Source of the DNA: Antedon mediterranea
Taxonomy: Eukaryota > Animalia > Echinodermata
Assembly: GCF_964355755.1 (NCBI RefSeq)
Contig: NC_092676.1
Location: forward strand, 3,635,888-3,699,887
DNA length: 64,000 nucleotides
Reading direction: 5' to 3'
The translations under genes and the position numbers were made by a program. Under the pieces are notes generated by a model. The model did no database searches. It saw nothing but the letters and a program-made list of their open reading frames with translations, and was not told where the DNA came from. Shown piece after piece: positions 2,325 through 55,789 of the stretch. Numbering within the stretch: position 1 is the first letter of the stretch; every line of letters begins with the position of its first letter.

Positions 2325-3381
2325 AAGAAGCAAAACAGAACCAAACGTAAGATCAAAAACAACGATGAAAACTTCACCAAACAATACATTACATCAAATA
2401 CCTCTTTAAAAAAATAAATATCTGCCATTTCAGTTTCCCAGGTATGATCTATTAAGGCTTTTGTTAAGTGAACTTTCACTTTTTCCAAAATACTCATAAT
2501 TTGACAAAATAAGCAATAATGACTAAATCATACGTTGAAATGTACAGTAATTAATTGGTTTGATGTTTAAGAAAATAAAATGAAATAAATTAGAGAGATG
2601 AATATTAACCAGAAAATAGAAGAGTAGGAAGTCCTAGAAAATAATTAGCAAGAATTGAAATCGTACAGGAAAAAAAGTCAGCAAACATAAGCATTCTAAC
2701 GTGATCGTCAAAATGGTCTATGATGGTTCTCTCTAAAACCTCGACTATACGTCATTAGATTTATATAAATATAATAATTATAACTAATAAACTTTAAGCA
2801 AGAACTAAATTGTTAAGTTATTTACACGTTACAAGTTTCTAGTTTTGTGAATATACATTTAATAAAATAATTGTACCAGGTATTACGAACGTTGGAAAGA
2901 TAGCTATCTTACACTTTAGTAATTTTTATTAAAAGATAGAGATAAACTTTAACTTCAGCATTTATCAAGTATTCCTGTCGTGTGTGGCAGCAGACGGCAA
3001 CTTACTTAAAAAGAAAAAAAGAAACAGGAATGATCCAACGTTTTAGTTTTAAGTTACTCTATAGGGGGCGGTATGCATTACTAGTTTTACCTATAGAATG
3101 GAATATGTTAAAATAACTGTATACAGGTTACGTAGTTGATGCTAATATCACTTTAGCAGGGGTACGCTACAATACAGTTCACAGTAATCTGAGTGTTTAA
3201 ACAGAGTATATTGTACCAACAACGTGCACATGTGAGCATCTACAAAAAGTATTATAAAGGCTAATTTTAAGTCTAAGTATAATTGAATTTTGTATTATTA
3301 TTTCTGGACATTTTTGATCCATACAATCTGGAATTTGATGGGTAAGGTAATCGATATTGAAGTTTAGCAGACGTGTTTATA

Positions 3382-5593
3382 ATGGCTCATCATCAACATT
3401 GTACATTGCTGATGGTTATATTGTATACTATTTTTTACTGCTGCTGTGCACAAACCTATACTTTTACAAAACATCCACAATCGGTTCTCGTTACGGAAGG
3501 ACAAACAGCAACGTTGTCGTGTGAATGGACAACAGCACCAACACATGACGTTTTCTGGTCTTTTTTTCGCTCGTGTTGGTACGCCTAAATTAATTGAAAG
3601 TTTAACATTAAAATACAATGTAACAAGTAAAGCAACATCTTCAAATCTTTCCATTTTTAATGTTGATTCTGATGACGTAGGAAGCTTAAGATACAGATGT
3701 GATATCTTGGATAGTGATTCATACAGTCTTTCTGAACTTGCTTCTGTAGTGCTAGCAGAAATAACGTGCAATCCAGAGAATGGCAATGGTGAGATAGGAA
3801 CAACGCTGACATGTTCTTATATTTTGTCTCATCCGTTAGATAATGTTGATTTATTATGGTTCAGATATGGAAGTGTAATTGAATCACATCACAAACAAAT
3901 GCATGTTTTAGAATCAAGGGTTTTGACTGCCGAAGACGATGGAGTTGTATTTACTTGTAAAGCCACAATGGGATCTCAAGTGATAGGAACTTGTGAAACT
4001 ACTCCGCTAATATTGAACATAGATGCAGAGATTGAACAATAACCACCAGGTCCACTTCAGGTTGGTGATAGCTTTAATCTCACGTGCTTTGGGAAAGGTA
4101 GTCCTGATCCTGGTAATTATATTTATGAATGGATATGGAACAACATTTCTGTAGATTCTTTGAAAAGTAATTGGCGATTTGCAATAAGCAATGTATTTAC
4201 TGTGAAGAGTGCGACAACCAAAGACAACGGTGAAATAGTTACTTGTACTGTCAGTCGTGTTGGACGTGACAGCAGTACAGAGAGCTATACAATAAACATT
4301 TCGGAGATTCCATTGAGTATATTAACTACACCTTTGCAATATTCTGTTACAGACCTATTACTATCAACCAATGTCTCGGACAATGAACCTCCAAAACTAA
4401 CGATTGTCGTTGGTGTCGTAGCTCTTGCGATTTTTATAACAGCAATTATAATTTACTTTTTACACAGAAGGCGCAAGAGCAATCAGTACGCCAACAAAAC
4501 AAAACCAATGAGCCTACAATTACAGCCAAATTGTGGTCACATGGAACAACAAATTACATTTTTTGACAACAGAATTATACAAACTTCAACAAACCTCGAC
4601 AACATGCGTGAAACAGCTTTGACCCTAGATGGTCGAATGTTAGAGTCTAACACACAAGATACCAGTATGCATGAAAACCCTACCGTGTCAGCACAGGATA
4701 CAATAAAAGAAAAGTATTATATGGGATCGGTAGACATTCACAACAATGGAATCACTACAACATGCAACAAAAATGAATGTGATAGTGTGGATTTAACAAC
4801 AGACAAGCAGAGTACTAAAATGGCAGCTGAAAGAGACAGCCAAAATGACTGTGATTTTGTGGAGTCAGCAACAGACAATCACAACATTGAAACCATCACA
4901 TCAGGTAGCGTAAATGAGTATGATTATGTGGAAACATCATGCAATGGCGCTAGAGTGAAGACTATCAGAAAAAACATTGAACTTGCCGATGACAACAGCA
5001 ATTTTCCCAAGAGAAAGCCACTGAAAACAGAGAATAATAGGCCTACAACGACTAAGTACAATAATGATTCAATGTCACAAGCAGATGTTTCCAGAAATGC
5101 CAGAGCTAATGATGAATTGGCCAAAAACTTGCATCACCTCAAAGATATCACAAGCATGGCAACATCTGACGACCAGAACATGTATGAAAATGTTAAAATG
5201 CCGCGATTGAGGAAAGATAAAGTACTGCTTATAGTTACAGGCAGTAGAGAGGATGACGTCACCCCAGTACACGACGCGAATACAAAACCCGATACAAACG
5301 TGTACGAAAATGCTTCGATGTCAAAAACATGTGTTTCCAGAAATAACAGAACCAACGATAAAGAGGCTGAGTATGAAAACAGTAAACTGCATCTTAAAGA
5401 TATCACAAGCATGACAACATCTGACGACCAGAACATGTACGAAAATGTGAAAAGTGTGTTACCGAGACTGAGAAAAGATGGAGTAACCGTTATGGACAAC
5501 CGCGAGGATGACGTCACCATAGTGCACGCGAATACACATGTGTACGAAAATGCACCAATACGAACAAAAGCAGTGAAGTCTGCTAAGAAATAA
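3382..5593 (+). pseudogene. Single-exon 3-Ig transmembrane receptor with YEN/YDY tail, disrupted
   Basis: ATG at 3382, +1 frameshift in the T7 run 3561-3567, and TAA at 4040-4042 where paralogs have TCA (QSPPG). The ORFs 3446 and 4160 are in the same frame. TM is IVVGVVALAIFITAIIIYFL, followed by HRRRK. Confidence 0.85.
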
Positions 5594-5764: not shown

Positions 5765-8083
5765 TTGCTGGAGAAAACATCAGGCTCATTGATGATCTCC
5801 TATACTATACTGTTGAAGAAGATGTGAGTAGAGAGTTCATGTTTAAGGTGTTGGAAAAATTTAACTTTGGAAAGTCCTTTTGTAAATGGGTAAAAACAAT
5901 TTATAAAAACACAGAATGTGTCATTGTTAACAATGGATGGGTATCTGAAAATTTTGAAATGAAATGTGGTATACGACAAGGCTGTCCCTTGCCAGCATTA
6001 CTATTTCTATTGGTTGTAGAAACAATGGCAAGTAACCTAAGAAATGATCAACATTATAATGGAATTTTGCTACCTGGTCCTACAAAAGAGGAAGAACGTA
6101 TAGCACAACTTGCAGATGATACAGTATTGTTTGCAAGAAACGAAAAAAGTATAAAAAGAGGTCTATTCATTGTTAATAATTTCTGTGAAGTATCTGGTTT
6201 AAGCTTAAACAAAAACAAAACTAGTGCCATGTGGATTGGTAAAAATAGATTTTAAAAAGATAAACCTTTTAATTTAAACTGGGTCACTGATCCTATAAAA
6301 ATCTTAGGAATATACTTAGGTATGATGCTGAATTATGTAAAGAATTAAACTGGGCTAAAAAATTAACAAACCTTGAAAAAGTATTAAACTCTTGGAAAGC
6401 AAGGAATCTTACAATTTTTGGAAAAGTCACAGTTTTAAAAAGTTTAGCTTTAGCCCCATTAATTTACAACGCATCCATAATTGATGTGCCTGAAAGTTTC
6501 GTTAAAAGGATAACACAATTGTCTTATGAATTTCTTTGGGATGGAAAAAATGAAAAGATAAAAAGAAAAACATTAATTGGTAATATAATTGAGGGTGGCA
6601 TTAATATGCCAGATTTTTCTACTCAAGTTAAAACACTTAAAATCACATGGGTAAAGAGAATTCTTTGTAGAAAACATGTAAAATGGAAAGTACTTCCACT
6701 GTATTATATAAACAAGATTGGAAGTGATTATATGGTGTTTAATATGTCAAACTAGAATATAAGAAAGGGCAGTTTTTTGTTAGCTAAGATGCCCTTATTT
6801 TATTCAAATGTAATAAAAAGTTGTGCAGAATTTAATACAAATATAAACAGTAAGGCAAAATCTTATAATAATGTTATACAAGAAAAACCTATGGGGTAAT
6901 AATGAAATTGTTTGTAAAAACACTACTTTGTTTTATAAAACGTGGAGTAATGTAGGTTTCAATCAGATCAATGATTTAGTAAGAATCAATAGACTAATGA
7001 ACCCACATGAAATGTTATCAAAATTAAATGTCAAAAGAAACTGGCTTAGTGAATATGCTACACTTATGCAAGCTATTCCTAAAGGTTGGCTGGATTTAAT
7101 AAAAAATTATAATGGAGATAGTGTTAAATTAAATTCAGATGATTATAAAATAAATAAGATATTTCAGATGAAAACAAAACAGATATATTCAAGTTTTATA
7201 GAAGGTATGTTTGTTGCTCCTATTACTATTCCCAAATGGGAAAAAGAAATTGATATTGAAATTACAAACTGGTTTGATATTTGGTCAAGAAAAGTAAAAA
7301 ATGAGAAAAACAAAAAATATGCACAACTTAATTACAAATTACTTCTTAGAATTTTACCAACACATTTACAATTATATAAATGGAATATTAAGAACACAAA
7401 AAAATGTGAGTTATGTGATGTAACTGAGGATGAAAAGCACATGTTTTTCAAATGTAAAAGCAATGTATTATTATGGAAAAAAATCAATTTTTAAAAAGTT
7501 AGATAATAGTAACTGTTCTTTTGAAGAACTTGTTTTTGGGTCTGAATGCAACATAAAAAAATAAGTTATACTCAATTGCTCTATATTCTATATATAAAAT
7601 AAAAATATTGTCAGAATTAAATAAGTCAGTATGTAAAAACTCATGGATAATGTTTAAAAATATACTTACACAAGAGTATACCATGAAAGTATTTTATTAA
7701 TTGTTTATTTTGAAGGTTACTGTAAATAAAGTAATTTGTACAAAAATGTAAATAGAGCAAATAAAACAGAAAAAAAGAGGAAAAAAGGAAAAAAACAATA
7801 AAAAGAAGTGTAAAAAAAATAGCATGGTAAATGCTATACTCTACAAGCAACTGGTTATTGAGGTGCTTTTGATTTTCCATATTTATTGATATTGTTTTCA
7901 GTTTATATGTAATGTAAATGTGTAAATGATATCTTGCAGAGTTTTTTTAAGATGAAAGGGGAAACTTTATGTCTATGAATGAAAATAGTATATATTTAAA
8001 AAGATAATATACAAACTTAATAAAATTGTTTATTTATGTTTTGAAATGAAATAAAGGTGAGTGAACCTCACAAAAGAGAAAAA
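5765..8083 (+). mobile_element. 5'-truncated L1/Tx1-type LINE (RT and C-terminal zinc knuckle), decayed
   Basis: GIRQGCPL and IAQLADDT RT motifs, CELCDVTEDEKHMFFKC knuckle, AATAAA and A-rich end. 16-bp TSD AACATCTTGAATTATT at 5749-5764 and 8084-8099. Confidence 0.92.
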
Positions 8084-9806: not shown

Positions 9807-11767
9807 GGTTCTAGGACACCTACCCCCTAGACAGTTACCCCCCGGATATTTACCACCCGGACAACTACCCCCTTAGGACAACTACCCCCCGGACAACTAC
9901 CCCCCGGACAACTACCCCCTTAGGACAACTACCCCCTTAGGATAACAACCCCCCGGACAACTACCCCCCGGACAACTACCCCCTTAGGACAACTACCCCC
10001 TTAGGATAACTACCCCCCGGTCAACTACCCCCCGGTCAACTACCCCCCCCCCCCCCCAATCCAAAAGTAGACAAACGGTTTCTGTAAAAATGAAATCATA
10101 TGTTTTTAACGGGTGTTTCGAAACTAGAGACCCGAGACCAGAGACCTGACACGAGACCCAATACGAAAAGGGAGACCTATATTTGGGTCTCCCTTTTCGT
10201 ATATTAGGGTCTCCCTTTTCGTATAGTGTGGTCTCTCTTTTCGTATAGTGGGGTCTCCCTTTTCGTATAATTTGGGTCTCCCTTTTCGTATATTTAGGTC
10301 TCCCTTTTCGTATATTAGGGTCTCTCTTTTCGTATAGTAGGGTCTCCCTTTTCGTACGTGGGTCTCTCTTTTCGTATATTTAGGTCTCCCTTTTCGTATT
10401 GGGTCTCGGGTCTCTGGTCTCTGGTCTCGGGTCTCTAGTTTCGAAACACCCGTTTTTAACCGATTATTCTGTTTAACAGCACGCTAGACCCTAGATGTGC
10501 TAGATTTAAAGTACCGTATTTATTGACAAAACGGCCTGGGCTGTTTATTGTTTAGGTGGTTTTTAGGTGGACATTTATTGGAAGAAAGTTGTTTATTCAA
10601 TGGGAGGGGGTATAATCTAATGGAAATAGACGCCGATTATTAATTCCATATGATGTTTCATGGGAGTGACATGATCACCGTTTATTTGAGGGGAATTTAT
10701 TTAAAGATCGCCGTTTATTCGGTGAGTGAACATTGAGGTCAAATATCAAAAGTGATATTATTCTTCAAGTGTACAAAAATACATATATGACAAATTTGAG
10801 ACAAAAATTAATTCTTTTAAGACCAGTGGTTATCGAAGCATTGTCCTGACGCAAACATTATTATTATTATTAGCGAACCCAGTCTTTACAGTAAATACAG
10901 GGAGTACTATATAATACGTTCGACTATCCTATGATCATGTGTGACAATCTTCAGTTTAAACCAGGCTATATTTATGTTCAATCTTTTACTTTTGTTTACA
11001 ATAATGAATAGTAATTCGTCAAAGTAACGAATTAAAATATAGTTATTAATTCCTATTATACACTGTTGCAGAGTCAGGTTGTTGAATGGTCTGGGTGGTA
11101 GTTGTCCGTCCGGGGGGTAGTTGTTCTAAAGGGATAGTTTTCTGGGTGGTAGTTGTCCAGGGGTTAGTTGTCCTACGGAGGTAGTTGTCCTAAAATATTA
11201 TTTGCCCTCGGAGTATTGTCCAGGTCCAGGAGGTAGTTGTCCTACCCGGTATTGTGTCAGAGGTAGTTGTCCGCGGGGTAATTACCCGGGTGGGGGGGGG
11301 GGTTGTCAGGGCGTAATTGTTCCTAGGGGGTAATTGTCCGGGGGTAATTGTTCCTAGGGGGTAATTGTCCGGGGGGTAGTTGTCCAGGGGTTAGTTGTCC
11401 TACGGAGGTAGTTGTCCTAAAAGATTATTTTCCCTCGGAGTATTGTCCAGGAAGTAGTTGTCCTACGGGGAGTATTGTGTCAGAGGTAGTTGTCCGGGGG
11501 GTAATTGTCCGGGGGGTAATTGTCCGGGGGGTAAATGTCCGGGGGGTAATTGTTCCTAGGGGGTAAATGTCCGGGGGGTAGTTGTCCGGGGGGTAGTTGT
11601 CCTAAGGGGGTAGTTGTCCTAAGGGGGTAGTTGTCCGGGGGGTATTTGTCCGGGGGGTAGTTGTCCTAAAGGGGTAGTTGTCCTAAGGGGGTAGTGGTCC
11701 AGGTGGTGGTTGTCCGGGGGGTAGTTTTCCGGGTGGTAAATGTCCAGGGGGTGAATATCCGGATACG
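9807..11767. mobile_element. Non-autonomous foldback/MULE-like DNA element with minisatellite arms
   Basis: GGACAACTACCCCC arrays at 9807-10050 are inverted relative to GGGGGTAGTTGTCC arrays at 11090-11767. 9-bp TSD GTATCAATA at 9798-9806 and 11768-11776. Confidence 0.85.
10111..10451. mobile_element. MITE nested in the foldback element
   Basis: TIR GGGTGTTTCGAAACTAGAGACCCGAGACCAGAGACC, internal GGGTCTCCCTTTTCGTATA repeats, 9-bp TSD GTTTTTAAC at 10102-10110 and 10452-10460. Confidence 0.88.
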
Positions 11768-12032
11768 GTATCAATACAGTGACTACCGGTACATAGTGTA
11801 TAGGAATCAGATCGAGTGAGTGTTTAAACTGAGTACGATTTCATAACAACGCGAGTATCGACTAACAATAAGGTTTACATTATAAACATTATTGTTTAAT
11901 CATCAGCATTTACCTACGTCTATTTGTGTACGTTTTTGTTTCATCAAAAATCTCTAGTTTGGAAGTTGATTTAAACTGAACCAAGGTAATATTGGAAGCT
12001 GAACTAGAAACTACCAAGTCGCAGTGTTTATA

Positions 12033-13745
12033 ATGGCTCATCATCATTGCTTGTTGTGCCTGATTATATTGTATAGTATATTTTACGACTGTTTTGCACA
12101 AATATATCGATTCACAAAACATCCACAACCGGTTCTTGTTGCTGAAGGAAACACAGCAAGGCTATCATGTGCATGGAGACCAGAATTGTATGAACTGCAT
12201 AACTTTGAATGGGCATTTTTCCCTCAGAATGGTGGTGAGCCTCAACCAATTAGAATGTCAAATTCAAAATACAATCTAACAAATGACGCAACATCTTCGA
12301 ATCTTTCCATGTCCAATGTTGATTCTAATTACGCGGGAAACTACAGGTGTGATATCAGAGGAATTAATGAATACAGTGATTCTAAAGATGTTGCTGTAGT
12401 GATAGGAGAAATAACGTGCAATCCAGAATATGATAATGGTGGAATAGGAACAAAGATGACATGTTCTTATAATTCTTCTTATCCTTCAAATTATATTTAT
12501 TTACGATGGCATAAAGACGGAAATATAGTACTATCAGACACACAAGACAAACACGTTATAGAATCAATAGTTTTGATTGCTGAAGACGATGGAGCTGTGT
12601 TTACTTGTAAAGCTATACTCGAAAACCAAGTGATAGGAACTTGTGAAACTACTCCGCTAGTATTGAACATAGATGCAGAAATTTTACAATCACCACCAGG
12701 TACACTTCAGGTTGGAGAAAGCTTAATTCTTACCTGCTCAGGGAAAGGTAATCCTGATTATTATAATTATACATGGATGTGGAATGACAACCCTGTAGGA
12801 TCGTCCCCAGATAAAAATAGATATGCAATAGAGAGTGTGCTTACTGTGAAGGATGTATCAAGCAGTGACAATGACAAAATAGTTACTTGTACCATTAGTC
12901 GTGATGGTCGTGACAGCAGTACAGCGAGCTATACAATAAATGTTGCAGAAAATACGCAAAGTACAACTGCACGTTCACGCACAACACAAGGTAGGTCTAC
13001 TGTTACAGACCTACTATCAGCAACAACATTATCATCAACCAAACTATCAGCAAACAATGTCACGTATGACGAGCCACAAACATTGATTATTGTCATTGGC
13101 GTAGTTGCAACCGTTATTGTGATTTTGATAACAGCAGTTGTAATTTACATTTTACATAAAAGGCGTCAGAAACAGGATGGCAAAAAAACAAAACCTGAAA
13201 ATGTACCATTGAAAGAACCAATGTATGGTAACACTGATCAAAATATTAACAGTTCTGAAAAATCACGCGTACAAAATGGCCCTCGGAGTGAAAAGTTGAC
13301 AACAGATTTTACAGTATATGATGAGCCTACAATTTCAAGTTCAAATACTCAGTTGGAGACTATGTACGCAGAACCTGATAGGTTAGTAACTGGTCACGAT
13401 GCTAGGTATGACACGCCACGGAACGCTATAAGTCTTGACAATATCGATACAGCGAATACTGATGAAGCGAGTGATACTAAGCAAAGAAAAACAAAAAGCA
13501 GAGAATGTATTGATGCAATGTATGCAAAACCGAACAAGTCTCGCAGTACAGAAAGTATTGATGATCTGTATGCTAAGCCCAACAAACAGACTGCAAGAAC
13601 GCCAGAGATTACCCGTGAAGATCCTACTAAGAAAAACGTAGAAGGCCTAACGTACGCAGATATAGAGTTTAAAAGCGGTACTTTTCCAAACCCAGAACCA
13701 CAGGACTACGGACTTGATTACGCAACCGTACAGATTAAGAAGTAA
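12033..13745 (+). CDS. Intronless IgSF receptor (V-type + 2 Ig, S/T stalk, TM) with YxxP motifs and two C-terminal ITIMs
   Basis: Hydrophobic signal, C..W..YAGNYRC V domain, two more Cys pairs, TM IIVIGVVATVIVILITAVVIYIL. Tail has YDEP, YAEP, YDTP, YAKP x2, LTYADI and LDYATV. Confidence 0.92.
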   Translation: MAHHHCLLCLIILYSIFYDCFAQIYRFTKHPQPVLVAEGNTARLSCAWRPELYELHNFEWAFFPQNGGEPQPIRMSNSKYNLTNDATSSNLSMSNVDSNYAGNYRCDIRGINEYSDSKDVAVVIGEITCNPEYDNGGIGTKMTCSYNSSYPSNYIYLRWHKDGNIVLSDTQDKHVIESIVLIAEDDGAVFTCKAILENQVIGTCETTPLVLNIDAEILQSPPGTLQVGESLILTCSGKGNPDYYNYTWMWNDNPVGSSPDKNRYAIESVLTVKDVSSSDNDKIVTCTISRDGRDSSTASYTINVAENTQSTTARSRTTQGRSTVTDLLSATTLSSTKLSANNVTYDEPQTLIIVIGVVATVIVILITAVVIYILHKRRQKQDGKKTKPENVPLKEPMYGNTDQNINSSEKSRVQNGPRSEKLTTDFTVYDEPTISSSNTQLETMYAEPDRLVTGHDARYDTPRNAISLDNIDTANTDEASDTKQRKTKSRECIDAMYAKPNKSRSTESIDDLYAKPNKQTARTPEITREDPTKKNVEGLTYADIEFKSGTFPNPEPQDYGLDYATVQIKK

Positions 13746-13782: not shown

Positions 13783-15739
13783 ATTTACAATGGTATAAAT
13801 CAGACGAACAAGTACTATCATACACACAAAACAAACACGTTATAGAATCAATAGTTTTGACTGCTGAAGACGATGGAGCTGTGTTTACTTGTAAAGCTAT
13901 ACTCGAAAACCAAGTTATAGGAACGTGTGAAACTACTCCGCTAATACTGACTATAGATGCAGAGATTGATCAATCACCACCAGGTGTACTTCAGGTTGGG
14001 GATAGCTTTAATCTTACCTGCTCAGGGAAAGGTAATCCTGATTATTATAATTATACATGGGTGTGGAAAAACAAACCAGTAGAATCGTCCCCAGGAAAAA
14101 ATAAATTTGCAAAAGATAATGTGCTTACTATGACGAGTGTATTAAGCAATGCCAATGGCAAAACAGTTACTTGTACTATTAGTCGTGATGGTCGTAACAG
14201 CAGTACAGCGAGGTATACAATACACGTCATAAGCCCCTTTCTCACAGAGTTGTGTGCCAGGAATATTGCGGGAATATACCATTACCATGCCGGTATGGTT
14301 TTCTGTGAGAACGGGTCGTCTTGGCATCATGCCGGCACCATGCCGGCATCGACATGACCTGCTTTAGACCTAGTAATATTCTAGGGATATTCCCCGCAAT
14401 GCCAGACGGGCATTCTGTGAGAACGTATTGCCGTTATATTCCGGGGTTCCCCGTCGAGGCTTTGACACCTTGCGCAGTCAAGTGTATCACTTTGGCGCCT
14501 ATTCAATTCAATTAACAATAATAATGTCGAACTGGAGGGATAATGAGATAAGAGAGCTGCTTAAAATAAGGGGACAAGAAGAAATTTGTAGCATAATCTA
14601 TATAGGCCGCTAGGCTAGGCCAGCCATTAGCTCGTTGTTTGTTGGTGCCTGACCTTTCGTCGCCTTGTAAATTGTAGGCCTACAGCCTTCTAAGGTGTTT
14701 TACAGATTGCCGATGACGGCAAATTAATTGCTATACCTGTATAATATATGCACAATATACTGTACATAGCATGTATTGCATAAATATGCTATAAAGGAAG
14801 ATAATAATCTGTAACTTAACATTCGCCGCCATATCATCGCTAGACAAAAATAATAACAATAAAGGACGCCCTCAATAATTATTTTGTCAGAGAGTTTTTA
14901 TTGGCCGAATATGCCCGACTCCTTTCTCACAGAAAGCCGGTATATACCGGTTATATTTCCGGCACGATAGTCCGATGAGAATGGGTATATGCCGGTAACG
15001 ATACCGGCACGACGCCAGCACTGTACCGGTATATTGCAGGCACATCTGTGAGAAAGGGGCTTTAGAGAATACGCCTACTGTTACAGACCCACTATCAGCA
15101 AACAATGTCACAGACGAGCCTCAAACATTGATTATTGTCATTGGCGTAGTTGCAACAGTTATTGTGATTTTGATAACAGCAATTGTAATTTACATTTTAC
15201 ATAAAAGACGTAAGAAACAGGATGACAAAAAGACAAAACCTGAAAGTGTACCATTGAAAGAACCAATGCATGGTAACACTGATCAAAATATTAACAGTTC
15301 TGAAAAATCACGCGTACAAAATGGCACTCGGAGTGAAAAGTTGACAACAGATTTTACAGTATATGATGAGCCTACGATTTCAAGTTCAAATACTCAGTTG
15401 GAGACTATGTACGCAGAACCTGATAGGTTAGTAACTGGTTACGATGCTAGGTATGACACGCCACGGAACGCTATAAGTCTTGACAACATCGATACAGCGA
15501 ATACTGATGAAGAGAGTGATGCTAAGCCAAGAAAAACAAAAAGCAGAGAAAGTATTGATGCAATGTATGCGAAACCGAACAAGTCGCGCAGTACAGAAAG
15601 TATTGATGATCTGTACGCTACGCCTAACAAACCGACTAGCGTAGAAGGCCTAACGTACGCAGATATAGAGTTTAAAAGCGGTACGTTTCCAAACCCCGAA
15701 CCACAGGACTACAGATTAAGAAGTAAATATCTCCCGTAA
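13783..15739 (+). pseudogene. 5'-truncated tandem duplicate of the 12033 receptor, interrupted by a transposon
   Basis: Starts mid-Ig2 directly after the 3' flank of the parent. The frame is restored when 14232-15064 is removed (GTC ATA GAG AAT). A 22-nt deletion removes the last ITIM. Confidence 0.88.
14232..15061. mobile_element. Non-autonomous PIF/Harbinger-like element
   Basis: TIR AGCCCCTTTCTCACAGA, flanks ATA/TTA. Internal MSNWRDNEIRELLKIRGQEEI (14524-14586) resembles the start of the Harbinger Myb/SANT-like protein. Confidence 0.75.
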
Positions 15740-16279
15740 CTGTTACGGTGACCAATACCTTACATTTATCATTACGAATCAACTTTTGACATGTGACGTA
15801 ACCGCATCGTTCAATATTGCTTGTACTGTACAAAGCTATTTTAATGCAATGTGTATTATAGGCCTAAAATATAACAGTCAAACGAATTTATATCGTAATG
15901 GTATACGTCATAGGCATCTCATAAACGATGAAGGAATTTGTTGATATCCATTAAAACAAAAACAAATTTCATAATATTTACTACCATGGGTTGCTGTAAT
16001 TTTATTTTATTAGAAACATTATAGGCCTAATTCTGAAGATTTTGTGAAATATCAGATTTTAGCCACATGGCAAGTGAAGCGTTTTGGCAAATCATGGACA
16101 CGTGTCCCGCAGAAAAATAAAATACAACTAATATTGGAAAACTCTCTCCATAATTTCAAGTTTAACTTTATCTACGGAGGCCTAGCTCAACACGGATGTT
16201 CTTTGCTGCAGCCGTCCTATAGAAAGGACAGCAGTTGTGTACGCAGTAGCAGTAAATAAACTTACAATAATAAAAAACA

Positions 16280-16289: not shown

Positions 16290-16763
16290 AAATTTTAAAT
16301 ACAAGTTACACTCTAGGGGGCAGTATACAATACTACCGGTATACCTGACAGTCGGTAATCTGTGACAATAACTTGAAACCGGAAATCCAGTTTTTTCTGT
16401 ATATACCATCGAGCCCGACGTTCCAATACAGTGATTTAGAATACAGGAATCAGATCGAGTGAGTGTTTAAACTAGTACCATTTCTATCAAAGTTGATTAT
16501 TTCTGTATTATATCGTAGCATTTTACAATACACAGTGATAAGAAGCAGTAAAATCATAATCGAAAGTGTTCTTAAACTGGATAAAACTTCTATCACAATG
16601 TATACAGTTTTACATTGTATTAAGTATCTTTAAATCATCGGAATCCAGTATTTCTCAACGTTTTTATTCCGTACCAACAATCTCTATTTTGATAAGGAAA
16701 TTGATTTACACCAATCTATAGCAATATTTGGAACTCAACCATCGGAAGGAACTACAAAGTGTA

Positions 16764-18524
16764 ATGGCTCATCCCCAACATTGGACATTGCTGTTTTACA
16801 AGAAGTGTCTGATTATATCTTATAGTATATTTTACTGCTGTTATGCACGATCTTATACTTTTACAAAACATCCACAATCAGTTCTCGTTGCAGAAGGACA
16901 AACAGCAACGTTGTCATGTGCATGGTCACCAGCATTGAATGGAAACCATGATTTTGCATGGTCTTATTATCGACCTGGTATTAACATTCAACGAATTGAT
17001 GGTTTAAATGCAAGATACAATATAATAAATGAAGCAACCTTTTCAAATCTTTCCATTTTCAATGTTGGCTCTTTTGAAGTAGGAAGATACAGGTGTGATA
17101 TCTTTGACGATGACGCTTCATACATTCTTTCTGAGCAGGCTCTTGTAGTGCTAGGAGAAATATCGTGCAATCCAGAATACGACAATGGTGAAACAGGAAC
17201 AACGATGGCATGTTCTTATATTTCCTCTTATAATGTTAATGCTATTGATTTATTATTTTATAAGAACGGAAAAATAATTACATCAGAAGTACAAGATAAT
17301 GTTTTAGAATCAAGGGCTTTGACTAGCGAAGACGATGGAGCTGTATTTACTTGTAAAGCCACCATAAAACCAAACAATCAAGTGATAGGAACGTGTGAAA
17401 CTACTCCGCTAGTACTGAATATCGATGCAGAGATTGAACAATCACCACCAGGTCCACTTCAAGTTGGTGATAGCTTTAACCTTACCTGCTCAGGGAAAGG
17501 TAATCCTGATTATTATGAATATGAATGGAAGTGGAATGACAACCCAGTAGATTCATTAAGAGGTAACAGTCGAAGTGCAATAGGCAATGTGTTTACTGTG
17601 ACAGGCGTTTCAAGCAGTGCCAAAGACAAAATAGTTACTTGTACTATTAGTCGTAGTGGTCGTAACAGCAGTACAGCGAGCTATACAATAAACGTTTCAG
17701 AAAACAGTTTAAGTACAACACCACAAGGCAGGCAACAATCCATTACAGATCAACTATCAACAACCAATGTCCCAGATGAAGATCCACAAACAGTGATTAT
17801 TGTCATTGGCGTAGTGGCAATAGCTATTGTGATTTTGATAACAGCAATTATAATTCACATTTTATATAAAAGGCGCAAAAGACAGTACGACAAAAAGACA
17901 AAACCCGAAAGTGTACCATTGAAAGAACCAATGTACGACAACATTGAACAAGACATTAACAGTTCTGAAAAAACTTACAATTCTGAAAAAACGCACGTAG
18001 AAAATGGCTCTCTACGTGAAACATTAAAAACAGATTTATCAATATATGATGCGCCTACGATTTCAAATTCAAATACTCAGTTGGAGACTATGTACGCCGA
18101 ACCTGATATGTTAGTAATTGGTCACAATGCTAGGTATGACACGCCACGGAACGCAGTAAGTCTGGACAATATCGATTCAGTGAATGAAGCAAGTGATGCT
18201 AACCCAAGAAAAACAAAAAGCAGAGAAAGTATTGATGAAATGTATGCGAAACCGAACAAGTCCCGCAGTAAAGAGAGTATTGATGATCTGTACTCTAAGC
18301 CTAACAAACGGAATACGAACACGCCGATCGAGGCCCACAGTAAAGAGAGTATTGATGATCTGTATGCTAAGCCTAACAAATCGACCACAAACACACCAGA
18401 CCCTACTAAGAAAAACGTAGAAGGCCTAACGTACGCAGATATAGAGTTTAAAAGTGGTACGTTTCCAACCCCCGAACCACAGGATTACGGACTTGATTAC
18501 GCAACTGTACAAACCATAAAATAA
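16764..18524 (+). CDS. Intronless IgSF receptor (V-type + 2 Ig, TM) with YxxP repeats and two C-terminal ITIMs
   Basis: Paralog of 12033. EVGRYRC V-domain motif, TM VIIVIGVVAIAIVILITAIIIHIL, tail ends LTYADIEFKSGTFPTPEPQDYGLDYATVQTIK. Confidence 0.92.
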   Translation: MAHPQHWTLLFYKKCLIISYSIFYCCYARSYTFTKHPQSVLVAEGQTATLSCAWSPALNGNHDFAWSYYRPGINIQRIDGLNARYNIINEATFSNLSIFNVGSFEVGRYRCDIFDDDASYILSEQALVVLGEISCNPEYDNGETGTTMACSYISSYNVNAIDLLFYKNGKIITSEVQDNVLESRALTSEDDGAVFTCKATIKPNNQVIGTCETTPLVLNIDAEIEQSPPGPLQVGDSFNLTCSGKGNPDYYEYEWKWNDNPVDSLRGNSRSAIGNVFTVTGVSSSAKDKIVTCTISRSGRNSSTASYTINVSENSLSTTPQGRQQSITDQLSTTNVPDEDPQTVIIVIGVVAIAIVILITAIIIHILYKRRKRQYDKKTKPESVPLKEPMYDNIEQDINSSEKTYNSEKTHVENGSLRETLKTDLSIYDAPTISNSNTQLETMYAEPDMLVIGHNARYDTPRNAVSLDNIDSVNEASDANPRKTKSRESIDEMYAKPNKSRSKESIDDLYSKPNKRNTNTPIEAHSKESIDDLYAKPNKSTTNTPDPTKKNVEGLTYADIEFKSGTFPTPEPQDYGLDYATVQTIK

Positions 18525-22134: not shown

Positions 22135-24553
22135 TTAAGATTGAAAACCCTTATTGTCCATAGCAGGACCGGATACAAACGATGCCATTGATTTTTGCGT
22201 GTGCTCATGGACAGGGAAAAACCAGGATCGCAGAACGCCGACATATCGACTGCGCATCGTAAAATTCTCGCCATTGGCGGCGTCTTGTTCTTTCATTTTT
22301 AAAGCAGCTCGTCGGATTACGACAATACCCACTATAATGAGTACAATAAGAACTAGTGCGATAATACCCATTGTTACCCCAATAATGGTACTATTCGACA
22401 CCTCGGATTTGTTCGAGTCTAAGGCTTCGTTTTCGATATCGTCAAGGTTATTCAAAGGCGTTGTAGCCGGTGTTAATGTCGTGGTTGGTAGTGGTTGAAC
22501 GTTTAGTATCAATATGTCTGACGGCAGAGTTCCAGCAAAGTAGTTCACCCTACATTGGACACTTGCACCGGCATCAGCTAATGTTACGTCACGGATGTCC
22601 ATAGTGGCGGAGGAACCAAAATTCCGGTATGTAATGCGTTCGTCATTCGGGTTGATAACGGCACCATCGATGTACCAGGTGTAATCTGGATTTGAAATGT
22701 GAAAGGCTTGGCAAACGAACACAGCGGTGGAGCCAACATCAACGTCGTTTACTCCGCTTATCTCGACTGCTGGATCACCGGTGATGAGCTTGAACGGTCC
22801 GACTGAACAGGTACGAGGAAGGCTCCATAGCTGATGGCTACCTTCGCAGATAAAGACCGCGTCAGCATCTTCCTCTGTGACTTTCCATGTGTGTGTATTG
22901 GTGGTTTCGCTAGGCTCGGTCAAATCTTCACCTCGAAGCCATTTCAGGATAGTTGCTGGAGAACCACCGTTTGACTCGCACGAAAATGTGATTTCTTCAC
23001 CGATGTTGACATGAAGGTTGTCTATGTCGGTCTTGCATTCTGGGTAGTCTCCTGCTGGCGCGGCTAACACCTGCAGGGCTGCTTTTTGAGATTGCAGACC
23101 AGTTTCGCCGCCAAGTACGATGCATTGGTACACTCCGGCATCCTGAGCTTGGACATTACTGATGCGGAGACTGTAGCCATAGTAACCATCTATATTTGTT
23201 GGCACCACAGAATATCTGATTAAAATAAGAAACGGTATAATTAAATTAAAGACATGAAAATTAATAATAAATAAACAATTATACGTAAAATAAACAATAA
23301 TAAAACGAAATCATGGCCTATTGTGGTGTATCTACGCTGTATTGAAACAAACAAAAACATTGCCCGGGCCGTGTATACTGTAATCATGGAGGAAAAAAAA
23401 TAATTATAATGTTATTATTTTTCCTCCATTGTATAATATATATACACGATAATGACACTGATATTTCATATTCTATAATGTTGACAAATGTCAATCCAAT
23501 CACGCAGAAATGTATAATTAAATTAAACAATTAGAGAGGTTATTTTTATCTTGAGCAGCAACGATATTTATAATAACTCTCTTTGAATTGTGTTAACGGT
23601 GTTGACAATTGTAATGAATGAACTTGATGTCAATTGAAACTACGAACCATATGGTATTGATTGTCACCATGGCAATATTAATTAAATACAGTAATAACGC
23701 TAAAACTCTACCATCAACGAATAATCACCCTCATGGTTTAAATAAATATTAATATGTATTATGAATATATTATGTTGCCAGTCATATTATATTTGGTATA
23801 AATGAATCTTTAATTACTCACAGTACAGTATATATATACACATATGTAGGTTCATAATACAATTTATACCATAAGATAAGATAATATAGTCTAGTAGTCG
23901 AAATATATACTGATATTGTACCAGGTTGTATTCTTAAGTGCTAAAGTACAGTAAGTTTCCATTAAGTTGGTGCTAAATCTACTAAAGTTTGGGACTTGTA
24001 TCCACTCAAGGACGTACGCGCAACACAATTTGGCCAATCACATGCGACGGAGCATTCGAATTGTCCCTTGTGATTGGTCAAATTAAAATATGGCGCTGGA
24101 CGTAGATCAGCCTGACGTAGATTTTTGCGTTATTAGTTGGTACCAAAATGTAAAGATATTATAATGATTTTGAGACAAGCCTGGTATAGGCCCTTCCTCG
24201 TATAAATAGTACTAGTAGCCTACTGGTCGGGATCTGTTAGGCCGATACTATAATTAATGGTCTTAAAAACTGTAAAATAATGATAAATACAGTTATATAA
24301 AGTAAAATAGATACCTTTTGTATTGAGTGGAATCGCCATCTTCACCCATAACATGGGAAAGTATACTGTGCTCCTGGGTAATGAGAATCGAGTCTTTAAC
24401 CCACAAATGGCTGCCATGATCCGAATTCAAAACGCAACTCAATGTCACATCTTGGCCCACATACGCGGTGGTGTCAGTTGGTTGCGAGATAAAATCTTGC
24501 GCAAAAGACACAGACACAGTCAGGAGAAACAATCCAAGGTTCCGAAAGCCCAT
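22135..24553 (-). CDS. Two-exon 3-Ig type-I membrane protein (KIRREL/CADM/nectin-like), 439 aa; exons 24553-24315 and 23215-22135
   Basis: Signal MGFRNLGLFLLTVSVSFA. A GT-AG phase-2 intron joins ..QYKR|YSVVP.. and the total is 1320 nt. DAGVYQC motif, TM IIGVTMGIIALVLIVLIIVGIVVI, short tail with a single Tyr. Confidence 0.88.
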
Positions 24554-26899
24554 CTTTGACGCAGAAATTCCTCCTGTTTTCACCAAACGATTTTCCGACT
24601 GTAGCTTTTTCCAGTCTATGTCAACTGTTGCGCTTGGGCGTTGGTAATTTGCATTTGTGACTAAGAAAAGGTATATTGTGTTTCCCAAACGATCGATTGT
24701 CGACATTGAATGGGGTAAGCCATGCGTTCAGTGGCTGTAAGCTTCATATTTGCAAGAGAAACGACACAGCTAACCCTCATTGGACGGCATTGATCAGGCG
24801 TGAAACATTCTTCGGATCAGAATCGACCCCTCTCAGGGCGAATTCCATGTACCATCAAGTACCATGCCTCGAAGTGAGCTCTTTATATATTACGGAGCGC
24901 CGGAATTGTAAACCTCCAAACAAATTTAAACAATTGATATAAAATTCAAGTGTGGTTTGGATTCAATGCCAAATAGTACGACAACAAAAGAGGAATTTCT
25001 TTACACCTTTTGTGCTCACAAAGGAATTTTTGTGTAGAAACATATTAAACTAAGCACATATTGAATTATATACAAACACTTGTAGGTAGTATTCTAGCAT
25101 GTCATTGTTGTAAACACAATTTGAAGTCCTCGTCGTAAACCGCATAATTGCAACTGTTATAGCAAAAACATCTGGGAATCGATTTTTATTGAAAATTAAA
25201 CTAATTTTGTGGTTAAATTATTGTCCAATAAGGGTCAAGTATTGTGTCTACCACTTCCAGTAGTTAAAAATACTTTTCTTGTTTATAATACTGTACAATA
25301 CTTTTATTTTTATTTTTTTATAGTAAAAATATGCAATTTTAGTGTAGGCCTAACTATACACATATCATCATTTTAGCTTTTCAGCAGAGTAACAAATCTG
25401 ACGTTTTGTTGCTACTTTGAAAATTTAGTTTCTATCCACAACTAATCACGTCACAACTTTCTCTTCAAATATCTACACATACAAATTTACATAATCATTT
25501 AACATTTGAATTCGACCTTACAGAGAAACGGATTATAAACGACTATGAGACTGAAACTAGAAATAAAACAGAAGAGGCAGAATTAAATTACATTTTCTCC
25601 ATTATATTTAATAAATAAAATATGTTTATGATAAAGTGTTCTTTGTGTAATTAATTTCCAATAGCAACTTGATCGTTAATACGGTAAAATGTATTTAAAA
25701 AATGTAGTTCTTGTAAAACATATTCACGCAATATTAACATTTTAAATATTTAATAGTCAAGTTATAAGCCAAAATATGTTTTAAAATAGCGGCCATCTTG
25801 GATTTCAACATGGTGGCTGAAATAGAATATTTACAACTTTAATAACAATATTATATTTGGAATCTTCAGTATCACAAACATGGGTATAGAAACCATTTTT
25901 AACTTGCTATGTCACTTAAAAGTCAAGTTATAAGCCAAAATAAGTCTGAAATGGCGGCCATTTTGTTTTTCACATTTTAAGGGTGAAGATCTAAAAATTG
26001 AGCCGGGTAAACAGCACATTTAAATTCAGCACCCCGAAATTACCCTAAAACACATGTTTTTCGCTTTTAACACGAAATGCCTACAGCATTTCATTTTTCT
26101 CAGATCTGGACTAGTCTAACATAGAGATATTATAGTTCACTATAGGCCTAATAAATATCTCTGTAGTTAACTTGCTATGTACTATTGTGTTTAGACAATG
26201 CAGTAAAGTTGCTTATAACTTTTGTGGTGAAAATATCTAACAAATAAAGCATTCTCTTGGTCAAATTAAGATATTTGTCAACATGAGATTTGGAACTTTG
26301 AACTGTTCAAACCTCGTATGTGGTATTATATCATAGCATAATGTTACCGTAGTGTAGTCCATGTACATTTTATTTTTTCGTAGGCCTATTTAATTATGTT
26401 TGTTTGTTTGTTTTATTAGTTTCTCCACACATTTTAAAATAAAAGATAAAAATTGCAAAAAGAAAATTACAATAAACAAGAAAAACATCAAAAATGTGCG
26501 GATGGAGGTCAAAATAAGTTGCGGACAACTTGAAGTCGTGACCACCAGTTAAAAAAAAAATAATGAAGGTGTACAATAGCAGTCCGGCTGCGATCGCAGT
26601 CCGGCTTACATTGAAAATTTAGTATTAAAATTATAGTATTGTTACTTTGTATTATACAGTATAATACCTTTCAGTTCTCAACCATTTCTACTTCGTTAAT
26701 TTATAGGAGCCTGGCGTCAAGTTTTCTTCCTAAAACTTACAAACATACAAATTACAATGATGCTTTCGAACTTGTTCAATAATAATAATAGTAATAATGT
26801 ATTTTCAATAAACGGAATTAAACGTACTTTATATACTGCACATAGCATACAGAATAATGTGTCAACTACTGGTATCTCTATTCATATCAACATTTCAGC

Positions 26900-34162: not shown

Positions 34163-35409
34163 ATGTCCAGTAAAAGTCACCACCGTGATTCTTCACCTCA
34201 TCATAGGCATAAACACCACAAAAAACACAAGAAGCGGAGCTCGCCATCCCGCCACCGGCGTTCACGCTCTCAAAGCCCAGAAGAGAGTCATGACCACCAT
34301 CGGCCTAGAAAACACAAGGCATGGCATTTGTTTTCTTGACTTAATTTCAAACATCTCTAAATCTTTTTGATTATGTACTGTATATTTATGTAGGCCTAGA
34401 CCCTCGTTATGTTTTAAAATTATTTGTTTAATACTAGAGACTACTAGCTAGGCCCTAGCTAGCTAGCCTAGCCTAAATATTAAAATGTACAGTACAGTAG
34501 GTAAAATTATTAAATTTATTTAGTATTATTAGTTTAGGCCTAGCCTAGTCCAGGTAGTACAAACTTTAAATTCATTTATTGCATATTACTAATGCTTGAC
34601 ACACCTTTGTATTCCAGATGCGGCACCATGATGAAGAGAGGCATGGAAGACATCGAGAGTATAGTACGTCTCCAAGGAGAAGGGAAAGAGAACACCATGA
34701 CAACAGAAATACACAAACGGAAAATAGAAGAGGTCACAGACATGAAGAAAGGAGTCATCAACCTCCTGTGAGAATAAAACAAGAAAGAGAAGAAAATGAT
34801 GACAGGAGGCGAAGAGATCATAAAAACAAACCAACAAATCCATTCCAAACGTCCGAGAATAATGAGTATGGCCAACCAAACGATGCTAATCAAATGGAAG
34901 AACCCGCTCAACCAAAGCAAGGCCCAGATTTTGGGCTGTCTGGGAAACTTGCGGAAGAAACGAACACATTTAGGGGAATTGTTATCAAATACAATGAGCC
35001 CCCTGAAGCTCGAAAACCTAAGAAAAAATGGCGTTTGTACGTGTTCAAAGGTGCGGAACAAATGCCCGTCCTTCAAGTGCATAGACAAAGTGCGTATTTA
35101 CTGGGTAGGGATAGAATGGTCGCGGACATTCCTATAGATCATCCGTCGTGCTCGAAGCAACATGCAGCATTGCAATTTAGACTCGTAAACTACCAACGAG
35201 ACGACGGCACTACGGGGAGAAGAGTCAAACCGTTTGTCATCGATCTAAACTCCTCAAATGGCACAGTCGTAAATAACGTTAAGGTCGAACCGCAACGATA
35301 TGTAGAACTTTTCGAAAAAGACGTTGTCAAGTTTGGATATAGTTCTAGGGAATATGTTTTGCTTCATGAAAAGACGTCTGTTGATGAGTCGGACGAAGAG
35401 GACGTCTAA
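34163..35409 (+). CDS. SNIP1: Smad nuclear-interacting protein 1 (FHA domain); exons 34163-34318 (probable) and 34618-35409
   Basis: FGLSGKLAEETNTFRGIVIKYNEPPEARKP..WRLYVFK..YLLGRDR..DHPSCSKQHA..YSSREYVLLHE, with an RS/H-rich N-terminus. Confidence 0.95.
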
Positions 35410-46011: not shown

Positions 46012-47517
46012 ATGAGGAAGATGGCATTTTCAACCATATATGTTCTTGTTAGTTTGTTAAGCATTTATGCAGAACAAGTGGTCGGACAGCTGACACTAGG
46101 CCAGTGGCCTCAAACAATAACAACTGCAAGTCCAGGAGAAGATGTTACTTTGCCCTGTCAGATAATAGGGATCGATCATAAGAATTACGCAGTGATGTGG
46201 CTAGCTAATAGACAACCAATTGTTAGTAGCCAACCGTCATTAATTAATAAAAATCTTAATAGAGTTATAGTTGAAGATTTTAAAATGTCAATTAATGATG
46301 ACAGATTTGACTTAATTATCTCTATCAGTGATTACGTAGCTTCTAAATTCAACCTGTCTTTGTTTGTCTGCACGGTAGTAAAAAGTGACAACCCAAGCCA
46401 TTATCGAATACAAACATCAAATTCAACATTGCTTATAAAAAACTGGAGTTTTGAAGCGCCAACATGTTCCAATCAGCCGGACGATGACGGACGTGTACAG
46501 TGTCAGTATTCAATCAACCATTTAACGAACGGAAAATTAAGCTTTCTTGGGAATTTCGTACAAATTCAAACCACAACAAGAATGGTAAACAACTACACAA
46601 TTTTGGAATATGCAACAAATTTACAAGACGTAGACAAAATTGTTCTTTGCGAGGTACTGAATGAAATCTTAGACGAAACAAGAGGTTGTACGACAGGTTT
46701 GTTAAAAATAAATTTAAGGTCACCGTTAAACCCTACACAACCTACGCAAAATTCAGAGACAACTTCTACATCAGATGCAAGTACAACTTTGTTGCCGACG
46801 ATACCACCTTCAAGTACCTCAATAATTTGGATACTATTACCGGTAGTTGTTACGCTGATTATGCTCATATCTTTACTTTGTACCGTATGGTTTATTAAAG
46901 TAAATTGTCTTAAAAAGAAAATAGCTTCTAGAGAAAGTGTTAATAATTCTAGTAAAAGAGATAGCACATCGCAAAAACTACGACATGACTACGAAGATAT
47001 ACCAAATGACCATAACCAGTTAAACACAAACATTATGTACGTACACAATAACGAAGGAACACATGAATTACCATCAAAGAAAATGTCATTACCGCATGAA
47101 TATGAAGAGATCAAACCTGATCAAGCACAATTTGTTGAGAATTCAGGACGAAATTCCATAATTGAGAATTTAAACGATCAAATTCATGAGTACGCTGTGT
47201 TGAATAGAGAGAACGACGAACATTTTCAAGGTACTGTAAACATGACTGAAAATAAAGAACGCTGCAATGTGCAAATTATTAACGACTATGAAAGTTTGTG
47301 TATGGAAAACAAAACGCAAGAGAGTGATCTAGGTTACATAAACGAAGGAAGGCATGAATATGCAGTTTTGAATGCAGAAATTGAAAACAAAGAAGAAAGT
47401 CTAACCAGTGAATACAACAAACCAAATGTTCAAGAAATGAAGGAAGAATACTTATGGTGTAAGAATGAAGTTTACGAGTCATGTGAGGACCTTCAGATTA
47501 CCAACAATAAAACTTAA
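46012..47517 (+). CDS. Intronless divergent IgSF receptor (V-like + one reduced Ig, stalk, TM) with repeated (H/N)(D/E)Yxx(I/L) tail
   Basis: SPGEDVTLPC..W V-domain start, TM IIWILLPVVVTLIMLISLLCTVWFI. Tail has HDYEDI, HEYEEI, HEYAVL x2, NDYESL. The start may be 46021. Confidence 0.85.
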   Translation: MRKMAFSTIYVLVSLLSIYAEQVVGQLTLGQWPQTITTASPGEDVTLPCQIIGIDHKNYAVMWLANRQPIVSSQPSLINKNLNRVIVEDFKMSINDDRFDLIISISDYVASKFNLSLFVCTVVKSDNPSHYRIQTSNSTLLIKNWSFEAPTCSNQPDDDGRVQCQYSINHLTNGKLSFLGNFVQIQTTTRMVNNYTILEYATNLQDVDKIVLCEVLNEILDETRGCTTGLLKINLRSPLNPTQPTQNSETTSTSDASTTLLPTIPPSSTSIIWILLPVVVTLIMLISLLCTVWFIKVNCLKKKIASRESVNNSSKRDSTSQKLRHDYEDIPNDHNQLNTNIMYVHNNEGTHELPSKKMSLPHEYEEIKPDQAQFVENSGRNSIIENLNDQIHEYAVLNRENDEHFQGTVNMTENKERCNVQIINDYESLCMENKTQESDLGYINEGRHEYAVLNAEIENKEESLTSEYNKPNVQEMKEEYLWCKNEVYESCEDLQITNNKT

Positions 47518-48121
47518 ATACTTAATATACTGAGAGGTTGAGGGTTAGGGGTTGGGGGTTGGGATTGAAGGTGGTTAATTACAAGTTTTTACATTCAGCC
47601 AACATTTTAACCAATCTCAACCAAAGTATTGGAATACTTTATTTTATATATTAAATACAACTCTTGCTTTAAATAATCTTTTAGATATTGCTTATACTAT
47701 ATTATATGCTATACTATCTAGATTATTAATTTCATTATGTAAAATATTTTACTGTATGACATATGGATTATGTAACTTATTAAAATTCACACAGTATTTG
47801 TTCAACTCAACGGACTGATATTTTTAATCTTGTACTAAATTGAATAAAGAATAATATACAACTTCAAATCTCTGTCATTTTCATTTTCCAGAAAAAGTTG
47901 TTATAATTGAATGCATGATGATGAAATCATGCATAGCAATTAATTACTAAATTTGTGTAACAATGAGTGCACACATTTTCAACATGGGCTTCTTTTCAAG
48001 GATTAATGCAGTAACTACATTTTATTCATGCTTGTTTATACAATAGTTTATGTAATAATTCAGCAAGCTTTCTTTGGTAATTATGCAATAAAGACTGTTT
48101 ATTGCATGACCTTCTACCTTA

Positions 48122-48276
48122 AGCTTTGTCTACACTATCAAACTAGTTTGACCAAAACAAATTGGATATGCCCAAATATGGTAGTGATAACCCCAAATAT
48201 GATAGTAATATGACATCATCATGTCTATATTTGGGCACATCATCACATTTTTTGGTTTGATAATGTAGACAGAGCT
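48122..48276. mobile_element. MITE family A copy
   Basis: Same TIR, TSD TTA. Confidence 0.8.
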
Positions 48277-55314: not shown

Positions 55315-55789
55315 GAAACGTTTTTGGCAAATGTGTAAAAGGAAATCCTAGTAACAATAAAAAATGTTGACACAAAACTGGTTATAACAAAATTTCAAAA
55401 TAATTGAACCGTGTTTCCAGTATCAATAAGTTCCACGACATTCAACCTTCAGAACAAAGGAATTAGAAATCCTGAACTTCATACATTCCTGACATACAAA
55501 CAATTAATTCTGACATCAAACCCTAAAATATCACTAATATTTTGTAAATATAAGCATGTTAATTCTTTGCAGTTTATTGTTATTCTAAAATAAATGCTTC
55601 AACTTGATATATAATAATTAAAAATAAAAATAATAAATAATAATAATATAGTATACAAAATACTAACATTTTGTAAATTGTAAATAATTCTAGTATACTT
55701 GTCTTTTAGATTAAAATTTTGTCAATTTGCAAAATATAACACTTTTTTTTCAAAAATGTATGTGTTATTGCATACGGTATTACCTTCAG

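Follow-up and report, generated by a model that had tools for sequence, protein, structure and literature searches.

A near-invariant terminal tyrosine pair, predicted to dock SHP2, in two paralogous three-Ig receptor genes

Two paralogous receptor genes, A and B, lie in the window, the whole stretch of 64,000 nucleotides analysed here, and the tails of both end EGLTYADIEFKSGTFP(N/T)PEPQDYGLDYATVQ, with two ITIM tyrosines 22 residues apart. Our overall reading, which we hold to be probable, is that this pair, kept by purifying selection, forms a predicted dock for both SH2 domains of an SHP2-type phosphatase, that its ancestry likely reaches across echinoderms and hemichordates, and that its likeness to the tails of SIRP-alpha and PD-1 does not come from shared descent.

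Receptor genes A and B

The products of genes A and B are three-Ig type I receptors. Features of the two genes and of two broken relatives are as follows.

12033..13745, + strand: gene A, 570-aa ORF without interruption, paralogue of gene B
Parts of gene A, + strand: signal peptide; three Ig domains, 12102-12947; Ser/Thr stalk; uncharged transmembrane helix, 13080-13151; tail of ~195 aa
13317..13580, + strand: five YxxP motifs of A (YDEP, YAEP, YDTP, and YAKP twice), 5' of the terminal pair
13635..13670, + strand: proximal motif of A, NVEGLTYADIEF; Y541 at 13653; predicted SHP2 N-SH2 ligand
13671..13712, + strand: proline-rich linker of A between the motifs; substitutions tolerated, no indel among the listed contig variants
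13713..13730, + strand: distal motif of A, LDYATV; Y563 at 13719; predicted SHP2 C-SH2 ligand
16764..18524, + strand: gene B, 586-aa ORF without interruption, 62% identical to A
18414..18521, + strand: terminal motif pair of B; Y557 at 18432, Y579 at 18498
13783..15768, + strand: copy C, a broken recent partial duplicate of A without signal peptide or domain 1
Pieces of copy C, + strand: domains 2-3, 13783-14222; an insertion of ~850 bases; stalk to end, 15091-15768
3382..5593, + strand: broken YEN-tailed paralogue; frameshift near 3570, stop at 4040-4042

Gene B repeats the layout of gene A, with a signal peptide, three Ig domains, a stalk, an uncharged transmembrane helix and a tail of ~200 residues. 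Pfam places the ectodomain of the receptor family in I-set, Ig and C2-set_2. The initial annotation spoke of diverging V domains; the divergence of domain 1 is real, but in A this domain is as much I-set as V-set, the V-set score of 25.9 bits falling just below the cut-off of 26. Its best fold matches are titin/obscurin (Z 15, rmsd 1.5–1.6).

Residues 384-570, in the tail of A, were modelled with pLDDT below 50, which is weak evidence of disorder only. Upstream of the terminal pair the tails carry five (A) or six (B) YxxP motifs, together with YxN sites. Motifs of the YxxP class bind adaptor proteins of the Nck/Crk/RasGAP kind, and the upstream YxxP and YxN sites suggest adaptor docking; a literature search for YxxP binders returned nothing usable. 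These YxxP motifs are additions to the initial annotation, as is the third, broken copy that has no distal motif.

Immediately 5' of gene A (9812-11762) are oppositely oriented G-rich and C-rich arrays of 15–17 bases, together with a 22-base array. A 13-base element, identical at 11817-11829, 16460-16472 and 3190-3202, sits ~190–300 bases 5' of the start codon in A, in B and in the broken paralogue (3382-5593), respectively, and is a candidate promoter or start-site element.

The terminal pair is kept while domain 1 diverges

From EGLTY to VQ, 30 of 31 residues are identical between A and B, compared with 51% identity in domain 1. The tandem terminal ITIM with tyrosines 22 apart, its presence in both genes and its near-invariance beside diverging first domains are thus as initially annotated, and the motifs read as written there. 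The coordinates given for B (18420-18524) were exact; the start given for A (13645) was four bases late, the E of EGLTY being at 13641. Chance produces such an arrangement rarely: an ITIM pair 18–31 residues apart arose in 0.165% of 20,000 shuffles of A's tail, and one with the second ITIM within the last 15 residues in 0.02%. The 44-residue end of the tail had no meaningful match in the PDB.

The near-identity of the two ends might be the product of recent gene conversion extending into the flanks, the outcome that the initial annotation named as fatal to its own proposal, or of chance, with no functional signal in either case. The locus does duplicate pieces of itself, copy C being 87–88% identical to parts of A. 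The silent sites refute this explanation. Between A and B, 7 of 26.5 silent sites differ over residues 532-568, a rate like that of domain 1 and of the whole gene, while only 2 of 84.5 replacement sites differ; the corresponding counts for domain 1 are 19.8 of 72.7 and 72.2 of 230.3. Silent rates in the terminal segment and domain 1 are equal (Fisher p 1.0), and replacement rates differ (p 3e-9). DNA 3' of the motif has diverged (117 of 169 aligned bases match), and the motif recurs in relatives at 20–25% identity. We therefore regard conversion or chance as having a negligible claim on the data.

The terminal segment is under purifying selection, not gene conversion, because its silent divergence equals that of the rest of the gene while its replacement divergence is only 0.024 (terminal 37 codons, pS 0.264 and pN 0.024; rest of the gene, pS 0.279 and pN 0.191). 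Neutrality of the segment is rejected (binomial p 0.001; bootstrap P 0.0004), and the segment is more constrained even than the remaining tail (p 0.018). The most conserved 37-codon segment of the A/B pair is the terminal one, with a pN of 0.012 against 0.058 for the best elsewhere. In domain 1 the replacement rate is about the silent rate (pN 0.31, pS 0.27), and relaxed and diversifying evolution cannot be told apart, the interval of pN-pS spanning zero.

Related DNA is present in ten runs under three organism codes; none is listed as RNA, although one may be. Contigs were aligned from four of the ten, one of which may be the source of the window. One run has 498 contigs that align to gene A with varied identity; these contigs do not separate alleles from paralogues. 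Across the end segment, 24 variants are listed among 56 contigs from four runs, and Y541 and Y563 are unchanged in all. The motif cores hold five silent variants and one D>E, the linker eight silent and eight replacement variants, and the sequence upstream two; the difference between core and linker is not significant (Fisher p 0.33). The linker tyrosine Y559 varies among contigs, and one low-depth contig has a diverged linker, apparently one codon longer.

Fit to the two SH2 domains of SHP2

Natural ligands of the SHP2 N-SH2 domain, as tabulated in one source, are hydrophobic at -2, +1, +3 and +5 and acidic at +2 and +4 (PMC8007070). The proximal L-T-pY-A-D-I-E-F agrees at all six positions, with L, A, I and F hydrophobic and D and E acidic. 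For the C-SH2 domain the pattern described is acidic at -1, hydrophobic at +1 and +3 and polar at +2, with an aromatic +5 favoured (PMC12878756); the distal L-D-pY-A-T-V fits most of this consensus, its +5 being I or T, not aromatic. In the natural activators of SHP2 covered by three reports the N-SH2 motif comes first, head to tail (PMC10231330, PMC12905495, PMC6994217). In the crystal structure reported for PZR, ITIMs pY241 and pY263, also 22 apart, bind both SH2 domains of SHP2 1:1 (PMC12415285). The spacing, order and probably flexible tail of A and B are compatible with such 1:1 head-to-tail binding. The proposal that the tandem ITIMs could engage both SH2 domains accordingly keeps its footing, since the spacing would allow two-site binding as in PZR; 22 residues is not special, relatives spanning 21–38. 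We predict with high confidence, from its sequence, that the terminal pair is an SHP-recruiting module.

Once the receptor binds its ligand or clusters, a Src-type kinase would come to the disordered tail. By analogy with PZR and PD-1, pY563 would then dock the C-SH2 domain and pY541 the N-SH2 domain, head to tail, and docking at two sites would hold the phosphatase open at the membrane. The upstream YxxP sites, going by their motif class, might recruit adaptors of the Nck/Crk/RasGAP kind.

The two motifs might instead act separately, the proximal one alone binding SHP2 and the distal one serving another SH2 protein or endocytosis, so that each receptor offers one SHP2 site or SHP2 bridges two receptors. 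One study of PD-1 prefers a model in which single motifs let two receptors be bridged (PMC7078208). Among 11 motif-bearing relatives (see below) spacing ranges from 21 to 38, and only eight have a canonical distal motif. Yet the order is constant in all 11, with the acidic N-SH2-type motif first and the terminal motif second, which matches the head-to-tail order described for natural activators (PMC10231330), and spacing stays within 21–29 in 10 of them. We consider separate action improbable, with either stoichiometry, and prefer two-site docking.

Relatives and age of the module

A HMMER search over 1.84 billion proteins gave 341 matches, none of them close among the best 150. A transmembrane helix is present in 94 of those 150, and an ITIM/ITSM pair 15–35 apart in 27 of the 94; many of these 27 tails resemble those of three vertebrate-named rows (two CD22-like, one hypothetical). 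Eleven of the best 150, chosen by this very pattern, carry [LVI]xYA[DE][LI] near the C-terminal end. Names were looked up for 20 of the 150, and eight of the 11 could be named: Amphiura (2), Asterias (2), Acanthaster, Diadema, Anneissia and Saccoglossus, with three unnamed. The named ones represent four echinoderm classes (brittle star, starfish, sea urchin, crinoid) and an acorn worm. The only named sea-cucumber member is without the motif.

The second tyrosine follows the first by 21–29 residues in 10 of the 11. Before the proximal tyrosine, NVEGL occurs in A and in four of the 11, with NAEGL in one more, and YAxP lies upstream of the pair in four. Part of the shared NVEGL may reflect constraint rather than ancestry, because IRS-1 also has G-L ahead of its motif. 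Scored against the profile of these relatives, in columns outside the selecting pattern, A reaches 15.5 compared with 9.6 for the best of 99 control ITIM/ITSM sites, which are not independent of one another. Overall the motif-bearing relatives are 20–25% identical. In a 24-sequence alignment no change is seen at seven of the eight ectodomain cysteines, and hardly any at the eighth.

The module is thus likely old within Ambulacraria (echinoderms plus hemichordates), judging by the 11 distant relatives that share the terminal pair on an eight-cysteine ectodomain. Its history is less simple on the ectodomain tree, built by a quick method from 37 hand-chosen rows with long branches flagged. Two extra domain-2 cysteines, present in A, occur in 26 of the 37 rows; the other 11, including all three named vertebrate rows, are without both. 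That tree gave no placement for A and B, and it rejected the 13 motif-bearing rows as a single ectodomain clade (p-AU 0.007). Repeated origin of motif-bearing tails, or tail exchange, is therefore possible; our reading favours an ancestral tail with repeated loss.

The family is apparently undescribed. Word-index searches with A's tail and with the whole of A gave no match, seven window proteins had no exact-sequence match in the protein collection searched, and atlas searches returned generic Ig clusters only, B's tail giving only leads below 0.9. RefSeq relatives carry automatic names only. Searches of the open-access literature met with no account of an echinoderm ITIM-bearing Ig receptor family, and subscription journals or genome-paper supplements could hold one; PMC8024022 and PMC11999971 add nothing on this family. 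Literature searches on the motif strings and on where SIRP originated likewise yielded nothing of use.

Likeness to SIRP-alpha and PD-1

The tail of SIRP-alpha also includes PEP and EYASVQ, and SIRP-alpha, like A and B, has three Ig domains. The SIRP-alpha motif cited at first annotation is real, Y470 reading TLT-pY-ADLDM in a published table (PMC8007070), close to GLT-Y-ADIEF of A and B. A special kinship to SIRP-alpha is not supported, however, the three Ig domains being by sequence profile of a different type and the motifs forming one pair rather than two. SIRP-alpha is described as V-C1-C1 with CD47 as ligand (PMC2785349), and its four tail tyrosines as spaced 24 and 26 within pairs (PMC12765318). 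A and B have V/I, C2-like (with the extra cysteine pair) and I/C2 domains, and their tails hold two ITIMs only, with five or six YxxP sites. The C1-set profile found no match in A or B and one in 24 family members (E 0.009). The same table sets SIRP-alpha Y470 and Y429 beside Gab1, Gab2, IRS-1 and PDGFR (PMC8007070), so the likeness is what any N-SH2 ligand shows, and its likely source is a common binding partner, not kinship.

With PD-1 the shared features are an acidic proximal motif, VD-pY-GELDF, followed by a distal pY-AT[IV], reported to lie head to tail on SHP2 (PMC6994217). PD-1 differs in having one IgV domain, a distal ITSM and a spacing of 25; the account consulted dates its family to jawed vertebrates and reports that sea urchin and acorn worm yielded no homologue of CD28, CTLA4 or ICOS (PMC11599192). 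Set against the PD-1/CD28 family, A and B have three Ig domains and, at distal -2, L rather than T, which places them outside it; being without an ITSM, they resemble PD-1 with no special kinship supported.

Could the family nonetheless share true, deep homology with vertebrate SIRP, or with PD-1, the pair having been inherited from the deuterostome ancestor? Besides the three Ig domains and a proximal motif near-identical to Y470, SIRP-alpha and -gamma match the family profile across all three domains (E 2e-21 and 2.5e-20), and the fold comparison puts antibody light chains (V plus C1) level with titin over domains 1-2. That comparison used the whole model, where LRIG1 ties as well (Z ~14, rmsd 9–18), and it gave domains 2-3 no clear class. 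But SIRP-alpha is only 49th of the 60 matches listed in the profile search, below LRIG1, CADM4, OPCML and NEGR1 among three-domain matches, and 28th by Foldseek. Its four tail tyrosines at spacings of 24 and 26 (PMC12765318) and the single Ig domain and ITSM of PD-1 also speak against it. Deep homology is in our judgement very improbable, and we rejected membership of either family: there is no C1-set signal and no ITSM, and the motif is common to the unrelated Gab1, IRS-1 and PDGFR. Of the two origins offered at first annotation, convergent or ancient, each likely applies at its own level: ancient within echinoderms and hemichordates, convergent with SIRP-alpha and PD-1. The A/B module likely works as the SIRP and PD-1 tails do, without membership in either family.

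Signal output and ligand

Docking of this kind does not imply inhibition: in Gab1, IRS-1, PDGFR and PZR, growth signalling runs through the same motif. The N-SH2 consensus is the same in Gab1, Gab2, IRS-1 and PDGFR (IRS-1, GLN-pY-IDLDL; PDGFR Y763, DVK-pY-ADIES; tabulated in PMC8007070), whereas these are adaptors or receptor kinases for growth signalling and unrelated proteins, so the motif arises repeatedly. In PZR/MPZL1, an Ig receptor, two ITIMs likewise lie 22 apart near the C-terminus and YADI is present (PMC12415285), but in the distal position, and the linker is unrelated; PZR acts in cardiac signalling. PZR has a single Ig domain.

Receptors A and B may therefore be adhesion or growth-signalling receptors like PZR, nectin-like proteins or Kirrel, sharing the docking mechanism of our preferred reading and differing in output, with SHP2 promoting Ras/MAPK or cytoskeletal signalling instead of inhibition. 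Beyond the shared motif and the identical spacing of PZR, the nearest solved three-domain matches include LRIG1, CADM4/Necl-4, OPCML and NEGR1, some relatives bear automatic names such as kin of IRRE-like, nephrin-like and cell adhesion molecule 2-like, and the pair comes after five or six YxxP sites. Tandem and broken copies, tail replacement, a domain 1 whose pN of 0.31 is close to its pS of 0.27, and 498 diverse contigs on gene A in one run look instead like a fast-turnover recognition family; such copy and tail turnover is a mark of those families, unlike single-copy adhesion genes. We give the adhesion or growth role an appreciable weight, short of an even chance.

Among clustered invertebrate Ig receptors, Botryllus FcoR and Hydractinia Alr are described with pseudogenes and mixed ITIM/activating tails (PMC12582321, PMC9546547). 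Theirs are multi-exon and genetically tied to allorecognition, A and B being uninterrupted ORFs with a terminal two-site pair; the families are set apart by description only. By this analogy, the clustering and turnover of the genes, with their variable domain 1 and mixed tails, would favour a recognition role for A and B. Whether the net effect of the receptors is to damp an immune-type response seems to us evenly balanced. The initial annotation proposed self-recognition; self as the ligand seems to us unlikely. Related ectodomains with contrasting tails were seen (ITIM pair and YEN), although the example with the YEN tail, at 3382-5593, is a broken paralogue, and an activating partner with a charged transmembrane residue was not found, none of the eight scored helices in the window carrying K, R, D or E.

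A wider and tentative proposal, which we think doubtful as a whole, is that this is an undescribed, fast-evolving paired-receptor family of echinoderms and hemichordates, in which the diversifying domain 1 of eight-cysteine three-Ig receptors would read self or microbial surfaces, and inhibitory members with a two-site SHP2 switch in the style of PD-1 and SIRP would oppose YEN-tailed ones. If it is true, non-chordate deuterostomes have an immune checkpoint of their own, separate in origin from vertebrate SIRP and PD-1. Inhibitory Ig receptors have been described in cnidarians, tunicates and vertebrates, and none for echinoderms in the accessible parts of the literature searched. A family with an SHP2 motif from crinoids to acorn worms supplies candidates for the restraint of immune or adhesive signalling, and its tails show how far one SH2 partner can drive unrelated receptors toward near-identical ends.

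Broken copies and neighbouring sequence

The window holds examples of both tail loss and tail replacement: copy C has lost its distal motif, and the paralogue at 3382-5593 has a YEN tail. At the DNA level the ectodomain of that paralogue matches A and B at ~75% identity; its tail is unrelated, with repeated YEN motifs and no ITIM. In copy C a 22-base deletion in the stalk-to-end piece removes the distal motif; 148 of 153 aligned bases are identical to A at its end. The insertion of ~850 bases in copy C (14226-15076) has short terminal inverted repeats and is likely a non-autonomous transposon. More YEN-type tail copies, like that at 4508-5593, occur at 1-383 and 1887-2324 with no ectodomain in view, which suggests further tandem receptors upstream.

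A second cluster of Ig receptor ORFs occupies 46012-64000, with uninterrupted ORFs at 46012, 53929, 56893, 60340 and 62753 (the last cut by the window end) and fragments near 48659 and 51947. The extra domain-2 cysteines are present in three of three ORFs tested. The tails are tyrosine-rich with no ITIM; there is one ITSM match in 56893, and 60340 has repeated YVDG/YINQ units. On the minus strand, 22135-24706 holds parts of a further multi-Ig transmembrane gene. It apparently has introns, and its middle domain has the CS.GP pattern seen in the receptors. A reverse-transcriptase fragment of a LINE-type element (Pfam RVT_1) lies at 5839-7494. The window is animal DNA from a crinoid host: the ORF at 34618-35409 is 100% identical over its full length to a SNIP1-like protein of Antedon mediterranea, the next match being that of Anneissia japonica at 73%.
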